A DNA stretch of 39,013 bases, from positions 1 to 39,013 of the forward strand of contig DATKAS010000189.1 of NCBI GenBank assembly GCA_035497855.1, read 5' to 3'. Below, in pieces: positions 1 through 31,835 of this stretch (its first letter is position 1; every line of letters begins with the position of its first letter). Source of the DNA: Acidimicrobiales bacterium. GTDB taxonomy: Bacteria; Actinomycetota; Acidimicrobiia; Acidimicrobiales; DATKAS01. The translations under genes were made by a program, and so were the position numbers. The notes beneath the pieces were generated by a model. It saw only the letters and a list, made by a program, of their open reading frames with translations. It was not told the origin of the DNA and ran no database searches.

Positions 1-1283
1 CGAGGCTCGGCGTGGCGCAGCGCCTCGGCGATCTCGGGATTGTCCGCGACGCGGAGACGGAAGGGTCGCGCCCGCCGACCGCCGCCGGCCCAGCCGTGCG
101 TCGCGCGGAGGGTGAACGTCGTCGAGGTGGAGTCCGAGGAGAACACCGCGGCGCGATCGGCCCCCGCGACGGTCGTGACCGCGACCGCGACCTGATCGGC
201 CACCTGAGGGACCTCGCGCGCGCCGGCAAGGGACCGCGACAGCTCGAGCAGCTCGACGAGGTGCTGCCGTTGCTCGCGGACTTGGTCGAGCGCGGTCGCG
301 GCGTCGAGCGCGGCGGCGGCATGGCGTGCATAGACCGCGAGCATTCGACGTTCGTCGGCGAGGAAGCCGTGCGCCTGCGGGTAGCGCGCGGCGAGACGTC
401 CGTACTGGCGACGTGACGAGACCACATCGACAACGAGCAGCTGGGGGTCGTCCTCGGGTGGCAGGCGAGCGGTGAGCTGCGGCACGAGCTGCGCGACTTC
501 GTCGTCAGTGAGCCCGACGTGGTGCACGCGCAGCGGATCGACATCGGTCGGGCGCACCGCGAGCACGAACTGGGGTGCCTTCGCGGCGACCGCCGCGCGC
601 TCCGTGATCCGTGCGAGCACTGTGTCGACGTCGTCGTCGGACACGAGGTCGGCTGCCGTCGAAAGCACCTGATCGAACGTCGCGTCGAGGTCCGCGAGCT
701 GCGCCGCGAGCACCGACGCCTTGCGTCGCCGTCCGCGCTGTGCAGGCGCCTTGCCGACCCAGCTGACCTCGTAGATGCACCGACGGTCGCCCTCGACCTG
801 GCATCCGTACTGCACGACGGTCGACCGCGGGAGGCCGAACAGTGGTCCGATCTGCGACAGGAGCCCGATGTTGTACTGGCAGTCGGCGCGGTGCGGCTCG
901 ACGGTCGGGAGCACGTGGTACGCGATCAGTGCGCGAGTGCGCTCGACTTCGAGCGCCTCCATGATCGCGACGCTCGAGAACTTGCCCGTCACACGGGGCA
1001 GGTTGCGAAGGACCATCGGAGGCGAGCCCAGGCTGCGCAACAGCGCCTTCGTCGATGCCCCGACACCGAGAGCGAGAGACGCTTCGCCGACGTGGCGCGC
1101 GACGACAGGGTCGTCGAGCACGACCGCAGCGGCTTCGAAGAGAGCGATCTTCTGTGCGTACGTGCTCCAGGTGCCCTCGTCGCTGACCACCCGTTCGGAT
1201 CGTTGCTCGCCCGCGAGCTGGAGCAGCCGCCGCACACCGCGGTCGCCCGCCCGCGCGCGGACGTACTCCACGATGAGCCGCAT
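1..1283 (-). CDS. Multi-domain sensor protein, 5' portion only (V4R-like N-terminal domain followed by GAF-like domains); the C-terminus lies beyond the window start
   Basis: Hand translation of the minus strand gives an uninterrupted frame from ATG 1283 (alternative GTG 1331, with an in-frame TAG just upstream) to position 1: MRLIVEYVRARAGDRGVRRLLQLAGEQRSE...ADCQYNIGLLSQIGPLFGLPRSTVVQYGCQVEGDRRCIYEVSW (Cys pattern typical of V4R), then ...LLELSRSLAGAREVPQVADQVAVAVTTVAGADRAAVF (typical GAF start). It is absent from the ORF track because it has no stop inside the window. The listed plus-strand ORFs here (12..416, 519..1544, 775..1410) are Arg/Ser-rich antisense shadows. Confidence 0.6.
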   Translation of the reverse strand, partial: MRLIVEYVRARAGDRGVRRLLQLAGEQRSERVVSDEGTWSTYAQKIALFEAAAVVLDDPVVARHVGEASLALGVGASTKALLRSLGSPPMVLRNLPRVTGKFSSVAIMEALEVERTRALIAYHVLPTVEPHRADCQYNIGLLSQIGPLFGLPRSTVVQYGCQVEGDRRCIYEVSWVGKAPAQRGRRRKASVLAAQLADLDATFDQVLSTAADLVSDDDVDTVLARITERAAVAAKAPQFVLAVRPTDVDPLRVHHVGLTDDEVAQLVPQLTARLPPEDDPQLLVVDVVSSRRQYGRLAARYPQAHGFLADERRMLAVYARHAAAALDAATALDQVREQRQHLVELLELSRSLAGAREVPQVADQVAVAVTTVAGADRAAVFSSDSTSTTFTLRATHGWAGGGRRARPFRLRVADNPEIAEALRHAEP

Positions 1284-1420
1284 CGTGGCGCCTGCCGTCT
1301 GGCGCTCGAGGTTGGTGGTGACGTCATTCACGGCCGCGGTGTCCCGGTCGGTGAAGGGGGCGTGCCGAGGCTACCCAGCCGCTGGCGCGGCGCTGCCCGC
1401 GATCCAGTAGAAAGCGGCGC

Positions 1421-2266
1421 GTGGACCTCGGGATCACCATGTTTCCCACTGACTATTCGATCGGCCCCGCGCGGCTGGCGGCTGAAGTCGAAAACCGCGG
1501 TTTCCGATCGCTCTGGTTTCCGGAGCACACCCACATCCCCGTAGGCCGAAAGACCCCCTACCCGGCAGGTGGCGAGCTGCCACAGGAGTACAGCCACACG
1601 CTCGATCCGTTCGTGGCATTGGGCGTCGCCGCCGCGGTCACCGAGCGGCTGCTGCTCGGCACCGGCGTGTGCCTCGTCGCGCAGCACGACCCGATCGTGC
1701 TCGCGAAGGAGGTGGCGACGCTCGATCTCGTGTCGGGCGGTCGTTTCATGTTCGGCATCGGCGTCGGCTGGAACGAGGACGAGATGGAGGACCACGGTGT
1801 CGACCCGGCGCGCCGCCGGGCCGTGGTGCGCGAGAAGGTGCTCGCGATGAAGGCGCTGTGGACGCAGGACGAAGCCTCGTTCGACGGCGAGTTCGTTCGC
1901 TTCCCGCCGAGCTGGTCGTGGCCGAAGCCAGTGCAGCAGCCGCATCCCCCGGTCCTCATGGGCGGTGCGGGCGGGCCCGTCACGTTCCGTCACGTCATCG
2001 AGTACTGCGACGGATGGATGCCGATCTCAGGCCGCGCGGACGTCGCTCGTCGCTCGGCCGAGCTGCGCGAGGAAGCCGCGGCTGCCGGTCGCGATCCCGC
2101 GAGCCTGCGACTCCACGTGTTCGGAGGACGGCCCGACGCCGAGGTGCTCGACCACTACCAAGAGGCAGGAGCCGACGGCGTGATCCTCTGGCTCCCACCG
2201 GCGAGCGAAGACAAGGTGCTCGCGATGCTCGATCGATACGACGCGCTGGTGGCTCGCTACCGCTGA
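1421..2266 (+). CDS. LLM-class (luciferase-like) F420-dependent oxidoreductase
   Basis: 281 aa. [14 protein letters not shown]...[12 protein letters not shown]...[21 protein letters not shown]...[11 protein letters not shown] is the characteristic profile of actinobacterial luciferase-like F420 oxidoreductases. Confidence 0.8.
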
Positions 2267-3588
2267 GCCCACTCGCGGTCGGGTTGGGCGTCGAGCAGCC
2301 GTGTGATCACCGCGGCGATCGGGCTGCGCTCGGATCTCGTCAGCGTCACGTGACCGAAGATCGGGTGCCCTCGCAGCGCGTCGATCACCGAGACCACGCC
2401 GTCGTAGCGGCCCACGCGGAGGTTGTCGCGCTGCGCGACGTCGTGTGTCAGCACGACTCGGCTGCCCTCACCGAGCCGGCTCAAGGCGGTGAGGAGCACG
2501 CCTCGTTCGAGGTTCTGGGCCTCGTCGATCACGACGAAGCTGTCCGTGAGGCTGCGGCCGCGGATGTGCGTCAGCGGAAGGACTTCGAGGAGGTTGCGCG
2601 CGAAGACCTCCTCGATGACCTCTGGCCCGACGATCGATTCGAGCGCGTCGCCCACCGCCGCGGCCCACGGCGCCATCTTCTCCGTCTCGGATCCGGGCAG
2701 GAACCCGAGCTCCTGACCGCCGACCGCGAACAACGGGCGGAACACGAGCACGCGCTTGTGGCTGCGCTGCTCGAGCACCGCGTCGAGGCCGGCCGCGAGT
2801 GCGAGCACGCTCTTCCCGGTGCCTGCGTTGCCCCCGAGGCTGACGATGCCGATGCTCGCATCGGCGAGGAGGTCGATCGCGACGCGCTGCTCGGCGCTCC
2901 GGCCTCGCACATCGAACAGCGACCGATCGCCGCGGATGAGGTGCACGCGCTTGTCCTCGTGCACGCGCCCGAGCGCGGACTGCGATCCCGAGGTGAGGGC
3001 GACGCCGGTGTTGCACGGAAGATCGCGCGTGACACCGAGGTCGACGACGCGCTCCGAGAAGAGGGAGTCGATGCTCTCGCTGTCGACGTCGAGCTCGACG
3101 AAGCCCGTCCACGTCGCGTCGCCCGCGAGCTCGTTGCGGTACTCCTCGGCGTCGAGGCCGACGATGCTCGCCTTGAGCCTGAGCGGGAGGTCCTTCGTGA
3201 CCACGACCACTCGCTGCGCCTCGTTCGCGAGGTTCTTGGCCACAGCGAGGATGCGGTGGTCGTTGTTGTCGCCGATCAGCGCGGCCGGCAGGCCGGTCGC
3301 GTCCATGTGGTTGATCTCGACGCGCAACGTGCCGCCGAGCGGCGTGATCGGCATCGGCCGCACGAGCGAGCCGAACTGCGCGCGGAGGTCCTCGAGGAGG
3401 CGAAGGCTTCGACGAGCCGCCCACCCGAGCTCGGGGTGCTCGCGCTTGGACTCGAGCTCCGCGATGACGACGAGTGGCAGCACGACCTCGTGCTCGTCGA
3501 ACCGGAAGACGGAGCCCGGGTCCGCGAGGAGCACGGACGTGTCGAGGACGTAGGTGCTGTGTTCGATCACAGAGGCCGGGTCGCTCAC
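2257..3588 (-). CDS. phoH2: PhoH2-type PIN-PhoH fusion protein (PIN RNase domain plus PhoH ATPase/helicase domain)
   Basis: PIN-like N-terminus [13 protein letters not shown]...[12 protein letters not shown]; Walker [16 protein letters not shown]; Walker [10 protein letters not shown]. The tracked ORF extends to 3807, but its first 73 aa are Arg/Pro-rich junk that overlaps the neighbouring gene. GTG at 3586-3588 gives [16 protein letters not shown]... (443 aa). Confidence 0.8.
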
Positions 3589-23995: not shown

Positions 23996-24442
23996 GTGGA
24001 GGAGGGTCCGGGCATCGCTGCATTCGCCGCGCTGCTGCGCGCCCACGCCGCGCTCATCCGTCGCTTGGACGACGAGCTCGTCGCCGAGGGAGGGATGTCG
24101 CTCGGGTGGTACGACGTGCTGCTCACACTCAGCCGCGCCGAGGGTCGCCGCTTGCGGATGCAGGACCTGTCAGACGCCGTCGTGCTCTCGCGCAGCCGCG
24201 TGAGCCGCATCGTCGACGAGCTCGTGCGCGTGGGGTACGTCGCGCGTGAACCCTGTGCCGCCGACCGCCGAGTCGTCTACGCGTCGATCACCCGCGAGGG
24301 TCGGCGCGCGCTCCGTAGGGCGCGCACCGTGAACGTGCGCGGCATCGAGGATCACTTCGCGTCAGTGCTGAGCGGTGACGAGCTCGAGACGATGCGCTGC
24401 GCGCTCGAGCGAGTGACGGCGGTGAACAGCTCGCGGGTCTGA
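23996..24442 (+). CDS. MarR family transcriptional regulator
   Basis: 148 aa with a winged-HTH profile: MSLGWYDVLLTLSRAEGRRLRMQDLSDAVVLSRSRVSRIVDELVRVGYVAREPCAADRRVVYASITREG. Confidence 0.85.
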   Translation: MEEGPGIAAFAALLRAHAALIRRLDDELVAEGGMSLGWYDVLLTLSRAEGRRLRMQDLSDAVVLSRSRVSRIVDELVRVGYVAREPCAADRRVVYASITREGRRALRRARTVNVRGIEDHFASVLSGDELETMRCALERVTAVNSSRV

Positions 24443-24443
24443 G

Positions 24444-25004
24444 CTACTGCTGCACGAGCTCGGTCTCGATCTCGATCTCGACCTTCTTCGACACGAGCAC
24501 GCCCCCCGCCTCGAGCGCCATGTTCCACACCAGGCCCCAGTCCTCGCGATCGACATCACCCGACGCGGAGAACGCCGCGCGGACGCCGCCCCACGGGTCG
24601 CTCACGATGCCGTTGAACGCCAGGTCGAGCGTGATCGGCTTGGTCACGTCGCGCACCGTCAGGTCGCCGACCATCCGTCCCCGCACGCCGCTCCACTCGA
24701 TCGACGTGCTCTTGAAGGTGATCGAGGGGTACTTCTCCACGTCGAAGAAGTCGGCCGACCTCAGGTGGCCGTCGCGGTCTGCGATCCCGGTGCTCACGGT
24801 CGCGGTCTCCAGGCTCACCTCGACGGTGGACTCGTTCGGGTTCTCGGCGACGACGACCGTCCCCGACATGCCCGTGAAGCGACCTCGGACCTTCGTGAAG
24901 ACGAGATGCCGGCCGATGAACTCGACAGACGTGTGGGCGGGATCGACCGTCCACACCCCGGGCTTCGGTGCTTGGATGCCGATGACACGCGTTGCGTCGC
25001 TCAT
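24444..25004 (-). CDS. yceI: YceI family protein, paralogue 2
   Basis: WTVDPAHTSVEFIGRHLVFTKVRGRF...IADRDGHLRSADFFDVEKYPSITFKS...GDLTVRDVTKPITL is closely similar to paralogue 1. ATG at 25002-25004 with GGGGAGGA upstream. The tracked ORF extends to 25472 as junk. Confidence 0.9.
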   Translation of the reverse strand: MSDATRVIGIQAPKPGVWTVDPAHTSVEFIGRHLVFTKVRGRFTGMSGTVVVAENPNESTVEVSLETATVSTGIADRDGHLRSADFFDVEKYPSITFKSTSIEWSGVRGRMVGDLTVRDVTKPITLDLAFNGIVSDPWGGVRAAFSASGDVDREDWGLVWNMALEAGGVLVSKKVEIEIETELVQQ

Positions 25005-25087: not shown

Positions 25088-25879
25088 CTATGCGAACGAA
25101 ACGGGCGCGCTGAACGCGGCGCGGCGCGATGCCCTTCGCAGCGTGAGAAGCACGGCCGGCCCGAGCACGAGGATCGCGATCGCGTTCGTGATCGCGCGGC
25201 CCACGTCCCATCCCCATGTGGACGTCGCGAGCGTGAACAGCAGGAAGCGATGGAGGTTCTCGGTGATCGGCGCGCCGGCCACGTAGGAGAGCTGGCTGCC
25301 CGTGCCGGTGGTGAACGGCCAGAACCACAGGTCGAGGAGCATCCCGTAGGCGAACGCGGACGCGGCGCCGTAGGCAGCGAGCAGCGCGATCTCGCGCCGG
25401 CCGCGCGCGGGCGGCAGCAATCCCGCCCCCATGCCGACCCACGACGCGGCGAGCATCTGGAACGGGAGCCACGGGCCGATGCCGCCTGTGATCACGGCCG
25501 AGGCGAACAGCGTCGTCGAGCCGAGCACGAAGCCGAACCCCGGCCCGTACACGCGTCCTCCGAGCACGAGGAGGAAGAACACGGTCTCGAGTCCCGCGGT
25601 GCCCGCGCCCATCGGCCGCAGCGCTGCGCCGATGGCAGAGAGGACACCGAGCATCGCGATCGCCTTCGTGTCCATGCGCCCTCCGGTCATCTCCGACAGC
25701 AGCACGGCGATGAGGCAGGGGAGGAGCGCAGCGAACAGGAAGGGCGCGTCGTGTCCGTGAGCGAGACCGCTCGGTGGTGTCACGAGGAACGGCCAGAGGA
25801 ACATCATCGAGCCCGCGGCGGACACGAGCACGAGCGCGGTGGTGGACCGCGTGCTCAAGCCGAGGAGTCGTGTCTTCAC
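25088..25879 (-). CDS. ECF transporter substrate-specific (S) component
   Basis: 263 aa, about 6 TM helices, Gly/Ala-rich. Last gene after the EcfT and EcfA-A' genes. GTG start 13 nt after the ATPase stop. Confidence 0.65.
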   Translation of the reverse strand: MKTRLLGLSTRSTTALVLVSAAGSMMFLWPFLVTPPSGLAHGHDAPFLFAALLPCLIAVLLSEMTGGRMDTKAIAMLGVLSAIGAALRPMGAGTAGLETVFFLLVLGGRVYGPGFGFVLGSTTLFASAVITGGIGPWLPFQMLAASWVGMGAGLLPPARGRREIALLAAYGAASAFAYGMLLDLWFWPFTTGTGSQLSYVAGAPITENLHRFLLFTLATSTWGWDVGRAITNAIAILVLGPAVLLTLRRASRRAAFSAPVSFA

Positions 25880-25892
25880 GCGAGGGCCGCTG

Positions 25893-27461
25893 TCATGTCA
25901 GGGCCTGCTCGACCTCGCGCACCGTGAGCCACGGCGACGGAGCGAGGATCTTCGCGATCTGCGGTGCGAACGCGGGCGACGAGCACACGACGTCCGCTGT
26001 CGGCCCGTCGGCCACCACCTCGCCTTCGGCGAGCACGACCACGCGGTCGGCGACCGCTGCGACGAGCTCGACATCGTGGGTTGCGATCACGATCGCGTGA
26101 CCGGCATGCGCCAGCTCGGCGACGATCGCCGCGAACCGCTCTTTCGCGCCGGGGTCGAGGCCGCGGGTCGGTTCGTCGAGCAGGACCACGACGGGCGCTG
26201 CAGTGAGCTGGAGGGCGAGGACGAGCGCGAGCCGTTGACCTTCGGACAGGTCTCGTGGATGGGCATCGACCCCGACGTCGACTGCGAACCGCTCGAGGAT
26301 CGCGCGGCACGTGCCCGGTGCGGTGCCGGTGTCGGCATCGGCCTGCTCGCACTCCGCCGCGACGGTCGGGAGGTACAGGAGGTCGGACGGAGCCTGGGGC
26401 ACGAGGCCGATGCGAGCTGGCCCGTCGACGGTTCCCATGAGCCGCGGCCCTGATCCTTGGATCGCCCACAGCAGGGACGACTTGCCGGAGCCGTTGCGTC
26501 CCATCAACGCAACCACCTCGCCACGATGCAGGTCGAGGTCGACCTCGCGCACCGCGACTGTTGTGTCGTAGACGACCGTGATGCCCCGCGCGACGACCGC
26601 GATGTCGCCGCCCGACGAGGCGAGCTGACGTCCGCGCGAGGGCGCGGCCCGTTCGGCGAGCGCGGTTCGGAGCTCGCTCGCGTGGCGACGAGCCTCGCGC
26701 ACGGAGAGGGGAGGCGGCATCCATCCTTGCGACTTGGCCAGCTGGACGACCGGCGGAGCGAGCGACGTGTGCAGCAGGACCTCGCGGGGATCGCCGTCGA
26801 CGACGGTGCCGTCGCAGAGGAGCACCACGCGATCGCAGTGGTGCACCACCCGCTCGAGCCGGTGCTCGGCGAGGACGACGGTGACGCCGAGGTCGTGCAC
26901 GAGTCGCGTGACCGCAGCGAGCACGTCCTCGGCGGCCGTCGGATCGAGCGCCGACGTCGGCTCGTCGAGCACGAGCACGCGAGGGTGCGCGGTGAGCACC
27001 GACCCGATCGCGACTCGCTGCTGCTGGCCTCCCGACAGGGCGCGGAGTGGACGAGAGCGGAGATCCGCGATGCCGAGGAGGTCGAGCGTCTCCTCGACGC
27101 GCTTGCGCATCACCCCAGATGCGATGCCGAGCTGCTCCATCGAGTACGCGAGCTCTTCCTCCACCGTGTCGGTCACGAACCCCGCGAGCGGGTCCTGGCC
27201 GACGTAGCCGACCGTCTCGGCCATGTCGCGGGGCTTGTGCTGGCGCGTGTCGAGCCCGTCGACGACGACGCGGCCCGTGAGGTGCCCACCGGTGAAGTGC
27301 GGCACGAGCCCGTTGATCGTGCCGAGCAGGGTCGACTTGCCCGAGCCGGTCGGACCGATGACGAGGCACAGCTCGCCCTCGTCGATGGTGAGATCGATGT
27401 CGCGCAGCACGGGACGCTCGTTGCCGGCGTGCGTGAACGAGTCGATCTGGAGCCGGATCAC
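25893..27461 (-). CDS. ECF transporter fused double ATPase (EcfA-EcfA')
   Basis: Two ABC cassettes: [11 protein letters not shown] / [11 protein letters not shown] / VLVLDEPTSALD and GRNGSGKSSLL / LSEGQRLALVL / VVLLDEPTRGLD. GTG at 27459-27461 forms a GTGA overlap with the ecfT stop. The tracked ORF extends to 28199 as junk. Confidence 0.9.
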   Translation of the reverse strand: MIRLQIDSFTHAGNERPVLRDIDLTIDEGELCLVIGPTGSGKSTLLGTINGLVPHFTGGHLTGRVVVDGLDTRQHKPRDMAETVGYVGQDPLAGFVTDTVEEELAYSMEQLGIASGVMRKRVEETLDLLGIADLRSRPLRALSGGQQQRVAIGSVLTAHPRVLVLDEPTSALDPTAAEDVLAAVTRLVHDLGVTVVLAEHRLERVVHHCDRVVLLCDGTVVDGDPREVLLHTSLAPPVVQLAKSQGWMPPPLSVREARRHASELRTALAERAAPSRGRQLASSGGDIAVVARGITVVYDTTVAVREVDLDLHRGEVVALMGRNGSGKSSLLWAIQGSGPRLMGTVDGPARIGLVPQAPSDLLYLPTVAAECEQADADTGTAPGTCRAILERFAVDVGVDAHPRDLSEGQRLALVLALQLTAAPVVVLLDEPTRGLDPGAKERFAAIVAELAHAGHAIVIATHDVELVAAVADRVVVLAEGEVVADGPTADVVCSSPAFAPQIAKILAPSPWLTVREVEQALT

Positions 27462-28606
27462 GAGATCCCCACCATCGTCGGGACGCGCGCACCCGCCGGA
27501 TCGTGCGGCGCGGCGAGCCGCGGGGGAGGCGCGATCCAGGCGGGCAACGCGCCGGCGAGGATCGCGAGGAGAGGGACGAGCTGGATGGTGGGCCACTCCA
27601 ACGGCTGTAGGGACGGGTTCAGGTTGTCGGGGTTCACGTGGCCGGCGAGGAACAGGCCGGTGGCGACGAACAGGCCGGACGCCGCGACGAGCCACTCTGC
27701 GGTCCGCCACGGATCGGGGCGGTAGCGGGTCGTGTGGGCGCCTCGCCCGGCGAGCGCGAGGCCGCACACGGCGGCGAGCGCGCCGAGCACGAGTGTGGGC
27801 AGCCCGAGCACCGCGGGTGTCGTCGCGTCGAGCAACCCGTACACGCCCACGCACACACCGCAGAGGCCGGCGAGCACGAGTGCGCCGCTCCCGATGCGTC
27901 GCGCCGAGCTCGTCTCCGTCGTGCGCCCGTGGCCGCGAGCGTCCATCGACGCCGCGAGGAGGATCGATCGATCGAGGGCGTCCGTCATGACCGGCACGAC
28001 GATCTGACGGAGCAGGTGGCGACGAGATGGCGTGCCGCCCCGGAGCGCGCGGGCGCGTCGCACGCGGCGAGCGCTCTCGACGAGCTGCGGCGCGACGGTG
28101 AGCGCGACCGTGATCGCGACACCGATCTCGTGCAACGAGCTGGGCGCCGACTTCAGCAACCGCTTCGGGTTGGCGAGCACGTTCGCGGCGCCGATGCACA
28201 AGATCAGCGTCGCGAGCCGGAGCCCGTCGTAGAACGCGGCGAGCATCCCCTCGAGCGACACTGGACCACCGACGCGGATGCCTTGCGCTGCGGATGGCAA
28301 CGGCAGCTCTGGCAGATGGAACAGCACATGCTCGCCGTACTGACCGTCAAGCACGGTGCGCAGCGCGACGCGCACCGCGATCACGACGAGCGCGGCGATC
28401 ACGTACCCATGGAACCCAGAGCTCCACGGAGCGTCGCCACGCCGGGCCGACACGACGAACGCAACGACGGCGATGATCGCCACGAGCAGCAGTGGGTTCG
28501 TCGTGCGGGTGGCCGCGGTCGCCATGCCGAGTGCCCAGATCCACCACGCGGCGGGATGCAGCTCACGGGGCAGACGTTCGAGGCTCGTCGTGCGGCGCGT
28601 GCTCAC
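27458..28606 (-). CDS. ecfT: ECF transporter transmembrane (T) component, CbiQ/EcfT family, unusually long (382 aa)
   Basis: Multi-TM protein in T-component position, with a CbiQ-like coupling region (ARRVRRARALRG...RSILLAASMDARG) and additional C-terminal TM helices. GTGA overlap with the upstream gene. Confidence 0.7.
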   Translation of the reverse strand: MSTRRTTSLERLPRELHPAAWWIWALGMATAATRTTNPLLLVAIIAVVAFVVSARRGDAPWSSGFHGYVIAALVVIAVRVALRTVLDGQYGEHVLFHLPELPLPSAAQGIRVGGPVSLEGMLAAFYDGLRLATLILCIGAANVLANPKRLLKSAPSSLHEIGVAITVALTVAPQLVESARRVRRARALRGGTPSRRHLLRQIVVPVMTDALDRSILLAASMDARGHGRTTETSSARRIGSGALVLAGLCGVCVGVYGLLDATTPAVLGLPTLVLGALAAVCGLALAGRGAHTTRYRPDPWRTAEWLVAASGLFVATGLFLAGHVNPDNLNPSLQPLEWPTIQLVPLLAILAGALPAWIAPPPRLAAPHDPAGARVPTMVGIS

Positions 28607-29424
28607 GCGCGCGCCCGCCGTCGTCGCCGCACGATCATCACGCCGGCGGTGCCGATGCCGACCACGACCGCCGCCGAGATGACGAAGCCGAGCGGGCTGC
28701 CTCCATCGTCACCATCCTCGCCCAGGTCGACTGCGATCGTCGTCGTTGCCGCGGTCGTCGTTGCCGCGGTCGTCGTCGAGCCGGCGGTCGTGGCGGTGGT
28801 GACGACCGTGGTGGTTGCCGCGGTCGTGGTTGCCGCGGTCGTCGTTGCCGCGGTCGTCGTTGCGCCGGTGATCGGCGCACTCGTCGCTGTCGTGGTGGTG
28901 ACCACCGCCGGCGTCGACGCGCAATCGCTCCTGTTCAGGGTCGCCGGCGGCGACGTCGCCGACGCCGGAGGAGCGAAGCGCGGCGCTGGGATCTCCGACG
29001 CGACCTTGTCGAGCGAGAACGACCAGCCCTCGAATGTCCCTGGTGGCGGGACCCGGCTCCCCGCGCCGAGCGTGCTGTAGCACCAGGCCCCGCCGGGCGC
29101 AGCGAGCCAATAGCCCCAATACCCCGAGGCCGGCGACGTGTTCACGCACGGATCGTTCGCCGGCTGGTTCGCGATGCGGCACACGAAGCCTGGGAACCGC
29201 TGTGCGGTCTGGTAGCCGATCCCTGCGCGCGTGAGCGCGTCGAGTCCGGATGACACCTGGCCTTCGGCGCAGACGACGTGGATGCCACCACCGAGGTCTT
29301 GGAAGTCGACGACGACGGTGACGCCGCTGTCGCCGGCACACGCACCGGTCTGCTGGCGCGGTGTCGCCGATGCGATCGGCAACAGCGACAGCGCAGCCAT
29401 GACGAGTGCGAGTGGTTCGATCAC
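28603..29424 (-). CDS. Secreted, C-terminally membrane-anchored DUF4430-like (transcobalamin beta-domain-like) protein with a Thr/Ala-rich stalk
   Basis: Signal-like VIEPLALVMAALSLLPIASA. Cys-rich globular domain with GYWGYWLAAPGGAWCYSTLGAGSRVPPPGTFEGWSF. Long TTTAA-repeat linker, then TM helix FVISAAVVVGIGTAGVMIV plus an RRRRRARA tail. GTG at 29424, 10 nt after the upstream stop. Confidence 0.6.
   Translation of the reverse strand: MIEPLALVMAALSLLPIASATPRQQTGACAGDSGVTVVVDFQDLGGGIHVVCAEGQVSSGLDALTRAGIGYQTAQRFPGFVCRIANQPANDPCVNTSPASGYWGYWLAAPGGAWCYSTLGAGSRVPPPGTFEGWSFSLDKVASEIPAPRFAPPASATSPPATLNRSDCASTPAVVTTTTATSAPITGATTTAATTTAATTTAATTTVVTTATTAGSTTTAATTTAATTTIAVDLGEDGDDGGSPLGFVISAAVVVGIGTAGVMIVRRRRRARA
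28741..28873 (-). repeat. 15-nt tandem repeats (cgtcgttgccgcggt and variants) encoding the Thr/Ala stalk
   Basis: Perfect tandem copies at 28741-28755 and 28756-28770, with near-copies from 28814-28873. Confidence 0.85.
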
Positions 29425-29434
29425 GACGCAGTGC

Positions 29435-31027
29435 TCACGACAGGTCGTGCATGAACCGTCGCGAAGCGACCGCGACCAGCCCGAGACCACTCGCGATCAG
29501 CAGCAGCGCGATGGGAAGGCTGCGCGTCGCGTCGTCGCCCGTTCGGGGCAGCTCGCCCGAGCCGGACGGGGCGGTCGTCGGCGCGGTGGTCGCGGACCCG
29601 CCACCCGGTGCCGTGGTGGTCGCCCCTGCGACCGTCGTGGATGTCGTCGATGTCGTCGTCGTCGTCGATCCCGTGACTTGCAGCGCGATCGAGAGGCTCT
29701 TGCTGGAGATCTGCCCCGCCATCTCGACTTGGTGGGCCCCCGCAGGAGTGTTCGCGGGGACGACGAACGTGAACGACGCGAGACCGTTCGCGTCCGCGTT
29801 GACGGTGCCGAGGATCACCGGATCGGAGAACAGCGTGATGCGCACAGGCTCGTTCGGGTTGAAGCCGTTGCCGCCCACTGCCACCGTGTCTCCCGGCTTC
29901 GCGGTCTCGGTCGAGATGGTGATGCCGCCCGACGAGGTGCCCCCGCCACTGCCACCGCCTCCGCCCGAGGGGAGCGTGACCTGCGGGAGGGCGAGCACGC
30001 CCTGTGACGTCGCCCGCCGGAACGGATCGCGTTCAGCGGGAAGCCCGTGTGCGATCGCGTCATCACGCTGGCCGGGGTCGTACGCGATGACACCGATGTC
30101 CGCGCTGGCCGCGCCCGCGTTCGTGTCAGTGAGCTGCAGCGACTGGATCCACACACCGGCCTTGTTCGCCGCGGCGGTCTGCCCAGCCGCCCGCAGTGCT
30201 TGGGCGATGATGCCCGTCGAGTTCGCGTTCAGGCTCGCCGTCGGTCCCGAGCCGCGGAAGGCGCCACTCGCGTCCTGCTGCCCGAGCAGCCACGTGACCG
30301 CCTCGCTCACGGCGCCCGATGCTGCGGTCTGGCCGACGAGCGCTTGGATGGCGAGCCCGGTCGCGTCGGGGTCGGCCTCCGCATCGCTCGCGCATGTGTC
30401 GCCGCTGTCGTAGAAGAGTCGGAAGCCGCCTGCCGGGCACTGCTGTGCGAGCAAGAAGGTGATGGCTTCGGCAGGCACGCCGCCGCTGGTGCGCGCGAGG
30501 CCCAGGATGTCGAACGCCTGGCCGAACCCGTTGCTGAAGTCGCCGAACGCGCTGGCGTCGGAGAAGCGACCGGTCTGGCCTCCGCTCGTCCGCATCAGCG
30601 CCCGTAGCTCGGTCTCGATGTTCAGGCCGCCGAGGTTCGACGAGTCCACGCCGAACACCTTCGTCATGTACAGGAGCTTCCCCATCGGTCCCGCGTACCG
30701 CTCCGTGGTGCCCGGTGCGCCGTCCGTGACGTAGCTGGTCGCGTTTGCCGTGACATTGCTGACCGTCGCTTGCGTGTCGGCTGCGCTCGCGCGTCCACCA
30801 CCGGCGAGGGCGAGGACGAAGTCGATCGTGAGGCCCCAGTCCGTGAAGCCCGGAGCTCCCTTGAAGCCGAGCTGGTGGTTGTTCGCAGCGAGCTCGTGCG
30901 ACAGCCAGTCGAGCGCGCTCGCCGTCGGGTCGGTCGCAGCATGCGCCGGGGCGACCGGCGCGACGAGCGCGACACAGGCGAAGACGACGGCGACAGCAGC
31001 TGCGAGGCGGCGGGCCAGTGATCTCAT
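29435..31027 (-). CDS. LPXTG-anchored surface protein with a prenyltransferase/squalene-oxidase-repeat (alpha/alpha toroid) domain and an Ig-like domain
   Basis: Signal peptide MRSLARRLAAAVAVVFACVALVAPVAPAHA. Repeats of the type LLAQQCPAGGFRLFY and LLGQQDASGAFRGSG. Gly-rich hinge, then a beta-rich domain (ITISTETAKPGDTVAVGGNGF...HQVEMAG). Thr-rich stalk, and sorting signal LPRTG + hydrophobic helix + RRF. ATG at 31025-31027. Confidence 0.7.
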   Translation of the reverse strand: MRSLARRLAAAVAVVFACVALVAPVAPAHAATDPTASALDWLSHELAANNHQLGFKGAPGFTDWGLTIDFVLALAGGGRASAADTQATVSNVTANATSYVTDGAPGTTERYAGPMGKLLYMTKVFGVDSSNLGGLNIETELRALMRTSGGQTGRFSDASAFGDFSNGFGQAFDILGLARTSGGVPAEAITFLLAQQCPAGGFRLFYDSGDTCASDAEADPDATGLAIQALVGQTAASGAVSEAVTWLLGQQDASGAFRGSGPTASLNANSTGIIAQALRAAGQTAAANKAGVWIQSLQLTDTNAGAASADIGVIAYDPGQRDDAIAHGLPAERDPFRRATSQGVLALPQVTLPSGGGGGSGGGTSSGGITISTETAKPGDTVAVGGNGFNPNEPVRITLFSDPVILGTVNADANGLASFTFVVPANTPAGAHQVEMAGQISSKSLSIALQVTGSTTTTTSTTSTTVAGATTTAPGGGSATTAPTTAPSGSGELPRTGDDATRSLPIALLLIASGLGLVAVASRRFMHDLS

Positions 31028-31144
31028 CGAGATGCTCGCTTTCGGTTGCGCCTGCGCAATTCCCGACCGAAGCGTGCATCGCGCCTGCGAGCACGGACCC
31101 CGGCTCTCGTTCCGCAGACCACGACGGTGGTGTGAGCCAATGCA

Positions 31145-31243
31145 CTCGCAGACAGGCATTCCGACTCCCCGAGGCGAGCGAGCTCGCCATGGGCTACGGC
31201 TGCGGGTCAGTGCCGGACTTCGACCGGCTTCCCCCGTCTGAGA
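31145..31243 (-). promoter_or_regulatory. Cobalamin (B12) riboswitch aptamer in the 5' leader of the surface-protein/ECF operon
   Basis: Minus-strand RNA reads cuCAGAC-GGGGGAAgcCGGUCgAAgUCCGGCaCUGaCCCGCaGCcGUAgccc...(hairpin gcgagcucgcucgc)...ggGGAGUCGGAAuGCCUGUCUGcgag. It has the GGGAA..GGU..AA..UCC..CCCGC..GUA core and a B12-box-like AGUCGGAAUGCCUGUC. CAGAC/GUCUG can close P1. About 115 nt of expression platform follow before the ATG at 31027. Confidence 0.7.
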
Positions 31244-31277
31244 GCGATATGTCGAAGCGTGAACCTACCATTGGTCC

Positions 31278-31835
31278 GTGGCTGACGACTCCCCCCAGAC
31301 GCTCGTCGGCATCGCGTTCGGCGACACATTCCGCGCGCAGGAATTCCTCACCGCCGCGCAGCGTCTCGCCGCGAACCGGCACATGCACCTGAAGGACGCG
31401 GTGTTCGTGATCAAGCGCGAGGACGGCACGACCGTCGTGCGCGAGACGATCGACCCGCAGCCCGGGCGTTCGGCGCTGTCGGCGGCAGTGTGGGCGAGCC
31501 TGCTCGGACTCCTGCTCGGCGGCCCCGTCGGATGGCTCGCCGGTGGCGCGATCGGTGCAGCCGGAGGCGCGGCGGCGGCCAAGCTCGTCGACCTCGGCGT
31601 CCCGGATGAGTGGGTCTCGTGGTTCCGGGAAGAGGTGCAGCCGGGCACGTCCACGCTCGTGCTGCTCGTCACCGAGCTCGACCGCGATGCGCTCGTGACC
31701 GAGCTCGAGCGGTTCAACCCGGCAAAGCTCGTCTACGCGAACCTCGAGCCTTACTGGCTCGACAAGATCCACGAGGCGCTCGGCGAGACCAGCGCCTCGA
31801 ATGAGCCGTCAGGACTCGACGAACTCTCGCAGTAG
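31278..31835 (+). CDS. DUF1269-family membrane protein (general-stress-like, Gly-zipper TM segment)
   Basis: LVGIAFGDTFRAQEFLTAAQRLA...AVFVIKREDGTTVV...SLLGLLLGGPVGWLAGGAIGAAGGAAAAKL. GTG start. Confidence 0.65.
   Translation: MADDSPQTLVGIAFGDTFRAQEFLTAAQRLAANRHMHLKDAVFVIKREDGTTVVRETIDPQPGRSALSAAVWASLLGLLLGGPVGWLAGGAIGAAGGAAAAKLVDLGVPDEWVSWFREEVQPGTSTLVLLVTELDRDALVTELERFNPAKLVYANLEPYWLDKIHEALGETSASNEPSGLDELSQ

Follow-up and report, generated by a model that had tools for sequence, protein, structure and literature searches.

A compact cobalamin riboswitch, probably of the Cbl-II class, in the leader of a predicted B12-scavenging operon of an uncultured Acidimicrobiales bacterium

The window, by which we mean the whole stretch of 39,013 nucleotides analysed here, carries on its minus strand an operon of five genes for two secreted proteins and the likely parts of an ECF transporter. 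The genes in question are arranged as follows.

31278..31835, plus strand: gene for a DUF1269 protein, divergent from the operon
29435..31027, minus strand: gene 1, a 530-aa secreted protein with a signal peptide, an (alpha/alpha)6 toroid (34-346), an Ig-like domain (369-451) and an LPXTG-type anchor
28603..29490, minus strand: gene 2, a secreted, membrane-anchored protein with a signal peptide, a Cys/Trp-rich domain of ~110 aa, a Thr/Pro linker and an anchor
25088..28606, minus strand: ECF transporter genes 3-5, comprising the three that follow
27458..28606, minus strand: T component, EcfT/CbiQ-like (PF02361 CbiQ, 30.2 bits with a cut-off of 25; EcfT chains 4hzu_T and 4huq_T at ~2e-4)
25893 to about 27464, minus strand: fused double ATPase (PF00005 twice; ECF_ATPase models at 1.8e-78)
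25088..25879, minus strand: candidate S component (PF12822, 27 bits, below the cut-off of 30.7)

The first-pass annotation had regarded the riboswitch upstream of these genes as the only functional clue that ties them to corrinoids, which no longer holds, given the transcobalamin-beta-like fold predicted for the gene 2 product and the ECF transporter parts encoded by genes 3-5. No family was found for gene 2 in a scan with a Pfam copy that lacks PF28005, and its profile gave no meaningful match among PDB sequences; the predicted model of its domain, with pLDDT above 90, nevertheless adopts the beta-grasp fold of the transcobalamin beta-domain (SLBB/DUF4430-like). Its best 15 VIA-align matches consist of 14 transcobalamin, haptocorrin or intrinsic factor entries and the uncharacterised chain 3u7z (Z 8.8-9.7, rmsd 2.8-3.2 A over 94-97 residues), the next fold falls to Z 5.4, and the Foldseek probability is up to 0.98. 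Judging from this model, gene 2 would encode a transcobalamin-like SLBB domain, a putative B12 binder. Most of its homologues are labelled PF28005 in precomputed Pfam assignments. The product of gene 1 matches the SCO2321_fam model NF053823 at 1.3e-21, which is below the cut-off of that family, and the fold of its AF2 model (pLDDT 85.4) is nearest to terpene cyclases, with Z 24. The transcobalamin alpha domain was considered as its best match and set aside, since it is not among the best 50 Foldseek or VIA-align matches listed, which terpene cyclases lead; it is possible that gene 1 and transcobalamin alpha share the (alpha/alpha)6 class. Together, the products of genes 1 and 2 resemble a surface-anchored counterpart of transcobalamin that is divided over two proteins.

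Operons of this kind are already known. Burroughs et al. 2007 (PMC1796856), in the operon descriptions of that paper, present secreted transcobalamin-like SLBB proteins, often accompanied by alpha/alpha toroids and by anchors of the Gram-positive kind, from the same operons as CbiO/CbiQ genes in bacteria without B12 synthesis, and propose that they serve in B12 scavenging. The present operon resembles those descriptions in its secreted toroid protein with a Gram-positive anchor, its SLBB-fold protein, its CbiQ/CbiO-like ECF genes and a genome apparently devoid of markers of B12 synthesis, and differs from them in that the toroid, here nearest to terpene cyclases, and the SLBB domain reside on two separate polypeptides. 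ECF modules behind cobalamin riboswitches are reported from acI Actinobacteria in PMC5301498, and ECF-CbrT is a characterised B12 importer according to the account in PMC5997447. The candidate S component of the window differs from the latter in sequence, with no meaningful match to any solved chain among PDB sequences, CbrT included. A literature search returned nothing relevant on SCO2321, nor on DUF4430 together with a riboswitch. As to the cell that would use the system, its genome encodes six proteins with B12-binding domains and a PduO-type adenosyltransferase (contigs C126, C23, C78, C472, C29, C308 and C102), and neither CbiC nor CobS turned up in the assembly, which is 91.5% complete. 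It is likely that the organism depends on imported corrinoids, and the picture of a B12 scavenger fits this combination of genes. Among the sequencing runs listed for the locus, three wetland DNA sources and no RNA source appear.

In the leader of the operon, the earlier annotation had recognised the parts of a cobalamin aptamer, namely the core, a hairpin, a B12-box-like segment and closing pairs, and all of them are present on the minus strand. The location that it gave was right, but the extent, 31145..31243, was too narrow, because P1 begins at 31246 and P13 of the switch ends at 31102. In the list below, the core, the G+C-rich hairpin and the B12 box were read from the sequence, and the aptamer as a whole was delimited by the RF00174 match, covariation and the minimum free energy (MFE) fold.

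31262..31270, minus strand: candidate extended -10 element TGgTAGGTT, proposed from conservation only, which would put the transcription start near 31255
31142..31246, minus strand: cobalamin aptamer
31235..31195, minus strand: core GGGGGAAGCCGGUCGAAGUCCGGCACUGACCCGCAGCCGUA
31193..31168, minus strand: G+C-rich hairpin, which is the short P6 hairpin
31166..31151, minus strand: B12 box AGUCGGAAUGCCUGUC
31246-42 with 31147-43, minus strand: P1
31240..31236 (CAGAC) with 31153..31149 (GUCUG), minus strand: P2
31235-33 with 31156-54, minus strand: P3
31228-24 with 31216-12, minus strand: P4, with L4 at 31223-17
31209-08 with 31202-01, minus strand: P5, with L5 at 31207-03
31199-97 with 31163-61, minus strand: P6
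31102..31138, minus strand: P13 hairpin, with outer stem 31138-34 with 31106-02 and inner stem 31127-24 with 31115-12
31123..31116, minus strand: L13
31120..31117 (GGUC of L13) with 31208..31205 (GACC of L5), minus strand: kissing contact
31083..31100, minus strand: anti-SD segment, in which GGG (31100-98) and GUGCUCGC (31094-87) pair with the SD-to-AUG region
31025..31043, minus strand: ribosome-binding region, with SD-like GAAAGCGAG (31043..31035), GCGAGCAU (31039..31032), CUC (31031..31029) and AUG (31027..31025)

The reading of this element as a cobalamin riboswitch is borne out by a covariance match, by conservation upstream of orthologues and by covariation. RF00174 (Cobalamin), one of two covariance models that had been suggested as a check, matches 31283..31134 on the minus strand over the full model (1-189) with 34.9 bits against a gathering threshold of 31.5, at an E-value of 2.2e-5 in the scan of the window and 4.8e-7 per genome. 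It is the single match over threshold when the whole window is compared with 4227 Rfam families, and the only RF00174 match in the source genome (3.66 Mb, 536 contigs). The conserved core, that is, the P3-P6 four-way junction, L4 and the B12 box in P6-3'/J6/3/P3-3', is aligned to the model at posterior probability '*'. The margin over the threshold is only 3.4 bits. RF01482 (AdoCbl) aligns at 31258..31099, also covering P13, with 24 bits and E 0.054, below its gathering threshold of 50. The other suggested model, RF01689 (AdoCbl-variant or AdoCbl-II, env8 type; gathering threshold 36.5 bits), failed to match the locus in a search of the genome, where its sole match, of 14.4 bits, is on another contig.

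Conservation of the element among relatives is extensive. When 61 related genomes were searched with the gene 1 protein, 11 loci with a clear match to the N-terminal toroid domain were taken as orthologues, and in 10 of these 11 Rfam detects a cobalamin-clan element upstream on the same strand, scoring 30.2-90.1 bits on RF00174 or 43 bits on RF01482. Locus L026 has no Rfam match, yet R1, a covariance model that we built from nine same-genus sequences, finds the element there at 50.9 bits. R1 detects 26 places in 27 sources and recovers the element at all 11 orthologous loci; on RF01482 the orthologous leaders score 39.9-52.8 bits. A search of 201 genomes of the class with the family NF053823 returned 16 loci in 15 genomes, and a cobalamin-clan match with E <= 0.1 accompanies 14 of these loci. 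At the other two (L035 and L043) the contig ends before the expected position, the upstream DNA being shorter than the ~600-750 nt that separate the riboswitch match from the gene match elsewhere. None of the conclusions depends on G051, an unpublished genome.

The secondary structure was examined in an alignment of 26 homologues, with P1-P6, the base of the P6 hairpin and both P13 stems as the tested structure. The alignment has 94.3% of its 862 cells paired, where shuffles give 79.7% and slid partners 30-42%, both sides have changed in 23 of 35 pairs, and none of 500 shuffles reaches the observed values on any of five measures, figures to be read with the knowledge that the alignment was fitted to the structure of the model and leans towards it, and that the sequences are related, so that shuffle counts overstate. 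P4, P5 and P6 are 100% paired across the 26 homologues, the pairs of P3 covary, and all five pairs of the outer P13 stem show compensatory change. The pairing of CAGAC with GUCUG, which had been predicted to be able to close the aptamer, is indeed present, as P2, and among nine same-genus leaders this closing helix is compensated, with CAGAC/GUCUG in the window, CGGAU/GACCG in G010 and CGUACA/UGUCCG in G002; in the same nine leaders the pair 31235:31154 is G-U, A-U or G-C, never A-C. The loops L5 and L13 were left unconstrained by the model, and 88 of their 91 cells (96.7%) are paired and 3 unpaired in the alignment of 26. At the variable kissing pair 14 sequences have A:U, 8 have U:A and 1 has a mismatch, although the covariation of the kissing loop rests on this one pair and may reflect few events. 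A kissing loop of L5 and L13 is, in the comparative overview of PMC7367189, shared by every cobalamin riboswitch. The unconstrained MFE fold of the leader recovers P1-P3, P4 and P6, and the MFE z-scores, 0.08 for the leader and 0.18 for the platform, are near zero and uninformative in a sequence of 68% G+C.

The RF00174 score near the threshold, together with the loss from the window copy of a 5' hairpin kept by eight relatives, might be taken to indicate a chance or decayed match without a regulatory role. That explanation was already disfavoured and is extremely improbable in the face of the strong covariation, a core that is invariant in nine species whose gene 1 proteins are only 56-77% identical, and a position and strand that do not vary in front of the same gene throughout the class. 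The riboswitch can therefore be regarded as genuine.

As to its class, the element had been described as a possible compact variant, which agrees with a P6 extension of 21 nt against 64 nt in the RF00174 consensus and with the lack of a P2 arm. P1, P2 and P3 follow one another as an almost unbroken helix of 13 pairs, interrupted only by one U-C mismatch, and P3-P6 constitute a four-way junction. Because this architecture fits the definitions given in Figure 1 of PMC7367189, the compact element corresponds to the already described Cbl-II class (Rfam clan CL00101, with RF00174 and RF01482), and within it to a IIb-like form. Shared with the class as depicted there are the P3-P6 four-way junction, GAA in J3/4, the 7-nt L4, the B12 box across P6-3', J6/3 and P3-3', the short P6 hairpin, the L5-L13 kissing loop, the lack of a P2 arm with a paired, one-mismatch segment between P1 and P3, and the position upstream of corrinoid uptake genes. 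It departs from the class in that its RF01482 score lies below gathering (24 vs 50 bits) and in that P13 contains no SD; the latter is situated ~60 nt to the 3' side, and the segment after P13 covers it. With Cbl-I AdoCbl riboswitches such as E. coli btuB and that of T. tengcongensis (4GMA), it shares the conserved core and the logic of the kissing loop but neither the P2 loop-stem-loop nor the large P6 extension, and these Cbl-I features, the extension comprising P7-P11, are absent from the window and from eight same-genus relatives alike. The env8 hydroxocobalamin riboswitch (Cbl-IIa; 4FRN/4FRG; RF01689), as outlined in PMC7367189, is likewise compact, has no P7-P11 extension and uses an L13 kissing loop. 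The window element differs from it in having neither a match to RF01689 nor the bulged J1/3 T-loop. The env8 element is a translational OFF switch, as is proposed here for the window element, with the difference that its L13/P13 element carries the ribosome-binding site directly.

The corrinoid that the element senses might be other than adenosylcobalamin, in that a Cbl-IIa-like switch could respond to forms with a methyl, hydroxo or other upper ligand, or a promiscuous one to several. The P7-P11 extension, which forms the pocket for the adenosyl group in Cbl-I, is missing from the element, and, in the examples discussed in PMC7367189, minor alterations of the periphery are reported to shift selectivity, with promiscuity described for the yvrC switch of B. 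subtilis. We consider this rather doubtful, though deserving of attention, since the segment from P1 to P3 is paired with one mismatch, which in the classification of PMC7367189 is the pattern of Cbl-IIb (AdoCbl) and not the bulged J1/3 of IIa, RF01689 has no match at the locus, and the copies in relatives score best with RF01482, the 'AdoCbl' model.

The expression platform that follows points to control of translation initiation. The earlier annotation had placed an anti-SD sequence at about 31088-31095, and GUGCUCGC is found within 1 nt of that position, at 31094..31087, complementary to GCGAGCAU at 31039..31032, which lies 4 nt upstream of the AUG; the two form 8 pairs, one of them G-U. 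The anti-SD:SD duplex calculated with RNAduplex has -21.4 kcal/mol against -12.6 +/- 2.6 for shuffled sequences, 1 of 300 of which reaches it, and the corresponding duplexes of eight relatives range from -16.8 to -25.4 kcal/mol. The native value is equalled by no more than 10 of 300 shuffles in eight of the nine same-genus leaders, the exception being G008 with 51 of 300. In the alignment of these nine leaders 88.4% of 95 cells of the anti-SD:SD helix are paired, against 26-40% with the partner slid. The region from SD to AUG is invariant or nearly so in nine relatives, and compensation in the helix is confined to one pair, U:A to C:G, in 2 cells, and 27 of 500 shuffles reach the score of the helix. 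A terminator-like site was sought in 30900..31450 and none was found. Since there is no terminator and the anti-SD pairing is real and complementary in nine relatives, translational repression through occlusion of the SD and start codon is likely; the pairing, the conserved complementarity and the lack of a terminator that underlie the occlusion proposed earlier thus stand, and from them we infer the switching itself.

In such a mechanism, a bound corrinoid would lock P1-P3 and the L5-L13 kissing loop, upon which the segment after P13 (GGG...GUGCUCGC, 31100..31087) would pair with the SD-to-AUG region at 31039..31029. An invariant inner hairpin (GCUUCGGU...ACCGAAAGC), which covers the 5' half of the SD, would hide the rest of it. 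Translation of gene 1 would then be blocked, and uptake would be turned off when B12 is plentiful.

The state in which the gene would be expressed is harder to discern from folding. The SD is predicted to be ~80% paired in every fold tried, with either the aptamer plus P13 or the anti-P1 helix forced. This anti-P1 helix is an alternative of 12 pairs, in which 31094..31083 is perfectly complementary to the P2/P1 3' strand at 31153..31142 (-22.2 kcal/mol, reached by 0 of 300 shuffles in RNAduplex), but it is not conserved, being matched by 165-225 of 300 shuffles in G010, G001 and G009, and when it was forced in the window the SD was still 80% paired and no ON state was found. A 9-nt sequence, CGCAGGCGC, occurs twice in the platform, at 31089..31081 and 31056..31048 on the minus strand, and GUCUGCG in P13 (31120..31114) therefore has two possible partners; relatives keep only the second copy intact. 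Between the forced P13 and the forced GUCUGCG:CGCAGGC helix, the accessibility of the SD went up by 0.04-0.44 in eight of nine relatives and was 0.20 in both for the window, values that are indicative only, as the window and probably some other rows used the first of the two CGCAGGC copies in this run. RNAalifold applied to the nine leaders also offered GUCUGCG:CGCAGGC, but with the promoter, which is not transcribed, paired to the SD region and with invariant pairs throughout, so that it provides no test and was set aside.

One might therefore ask whether the riboswitch, though real, controls mainly transcription or mRNA stability, through Rho-dependent termination or decay after ribosome exclusion, instead of acting by simple occlusion of the SD. 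The platform is long (115 nt) and C-rich, and the SD is mostly paired in every predicted state, with no distinct ON fold found. In E. coli btuB and in other riboswitches that act on translation, Rho termination is triggered as well, which counts in favour of this explanation. We nevertheless think it unlikely, because the locus has no intrinsic terminator and the conserved complementarity targets the SD-AUG region, and the distant homologues also appear, from their sequences, to place the SD in a stem.

Occlusion of the start site remains the preferred reading, and a more specific version of it can be put forward as a speculation, with the odds against it. In this Acidimicrobiia-like lineage the platform might work as a relay, in which a ligand-locked P13 and kissing loop, rather than hiding the ribosome site on its own, frees the adjacent GGG...GCUCGC to clamp the SD-AUG region ~60 nt away around the invariant inner hairpin, with the 3' strand of either P13 or P1/P2 acting as a competing anti-sequestor, and with a split, cell-wall-anchored transcobalamin analogue as the cargo of the control. 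If true, this would represent a variant coupling of the kissing loop to translation that is not described for env8 or btuB.

Taking these observations together, we conclude with considerable confidence that 31246..31102 on the minus strand is a cobalamin riboswitch of the compact Cbl-II class, IIb-like, which as the leader of the five-gene operon presumably binds its ligand to act as a translational OFF switch. Knowledge of riboswitches as such is unchanged by the finding, both the compact class and this kind of operon being known already. What it offers is a label for the operon of an uncultured wetland actinobacterium that is apparently unable to make B12: the riboswitch marks the five genes as corrinoid-repressed, and together with the fold of gene 2 as a predicted B12-scavenging system. 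It should be useful for the annotation of hypothetical proteins and those named 'prenyltransferase/squalene oxidase repeat' in the family of gene 1, and for inferring B12 dependence in genomes from metagenomes.

Several features around the switch deserve mention. TGnTAGGTT, the candidate -10 element, is kept in all nine same-genus leaders, and a scan with the sigma-70 consensus gave 0 sites. No more than 8 nt separate it from the GTG codon (31278) at which the divergent DUF1269 gene starts, which makes for a very tight shared control region. Between the putative -10 and P1, a hairpin of ~20 nt (GCUCGGCUCUGGCCGAGU in G004) is present in all eight same-genus relatives (L003-L009, L011); the window leader is without it at 31250..31262 on the minus strand, and its aptamer is untouched. 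At the other end of the operon, a YceI-like gene (24444..24980, minus strand) follows the ECF genes by ~100 nt, and a MarR-family gene (23996..24442, plus strand) converges on it. A distant orthologue of gene 1 with 37% identity, at locus L012 (G060:C5), stands behind a long Cbl-I-type riboswitch (1285..1453, plus strand; 90.1 bits on RF00174), so that the gene under control has been retained although the subclass of its riboswitch has changed. Locus L047 (G165:C1) contains two tandem units, at 2605..2754 and 1014..1162 on the minus strand, in each of which a cobalamin-type riboswitch precedes a gene of the SCO2321 family.
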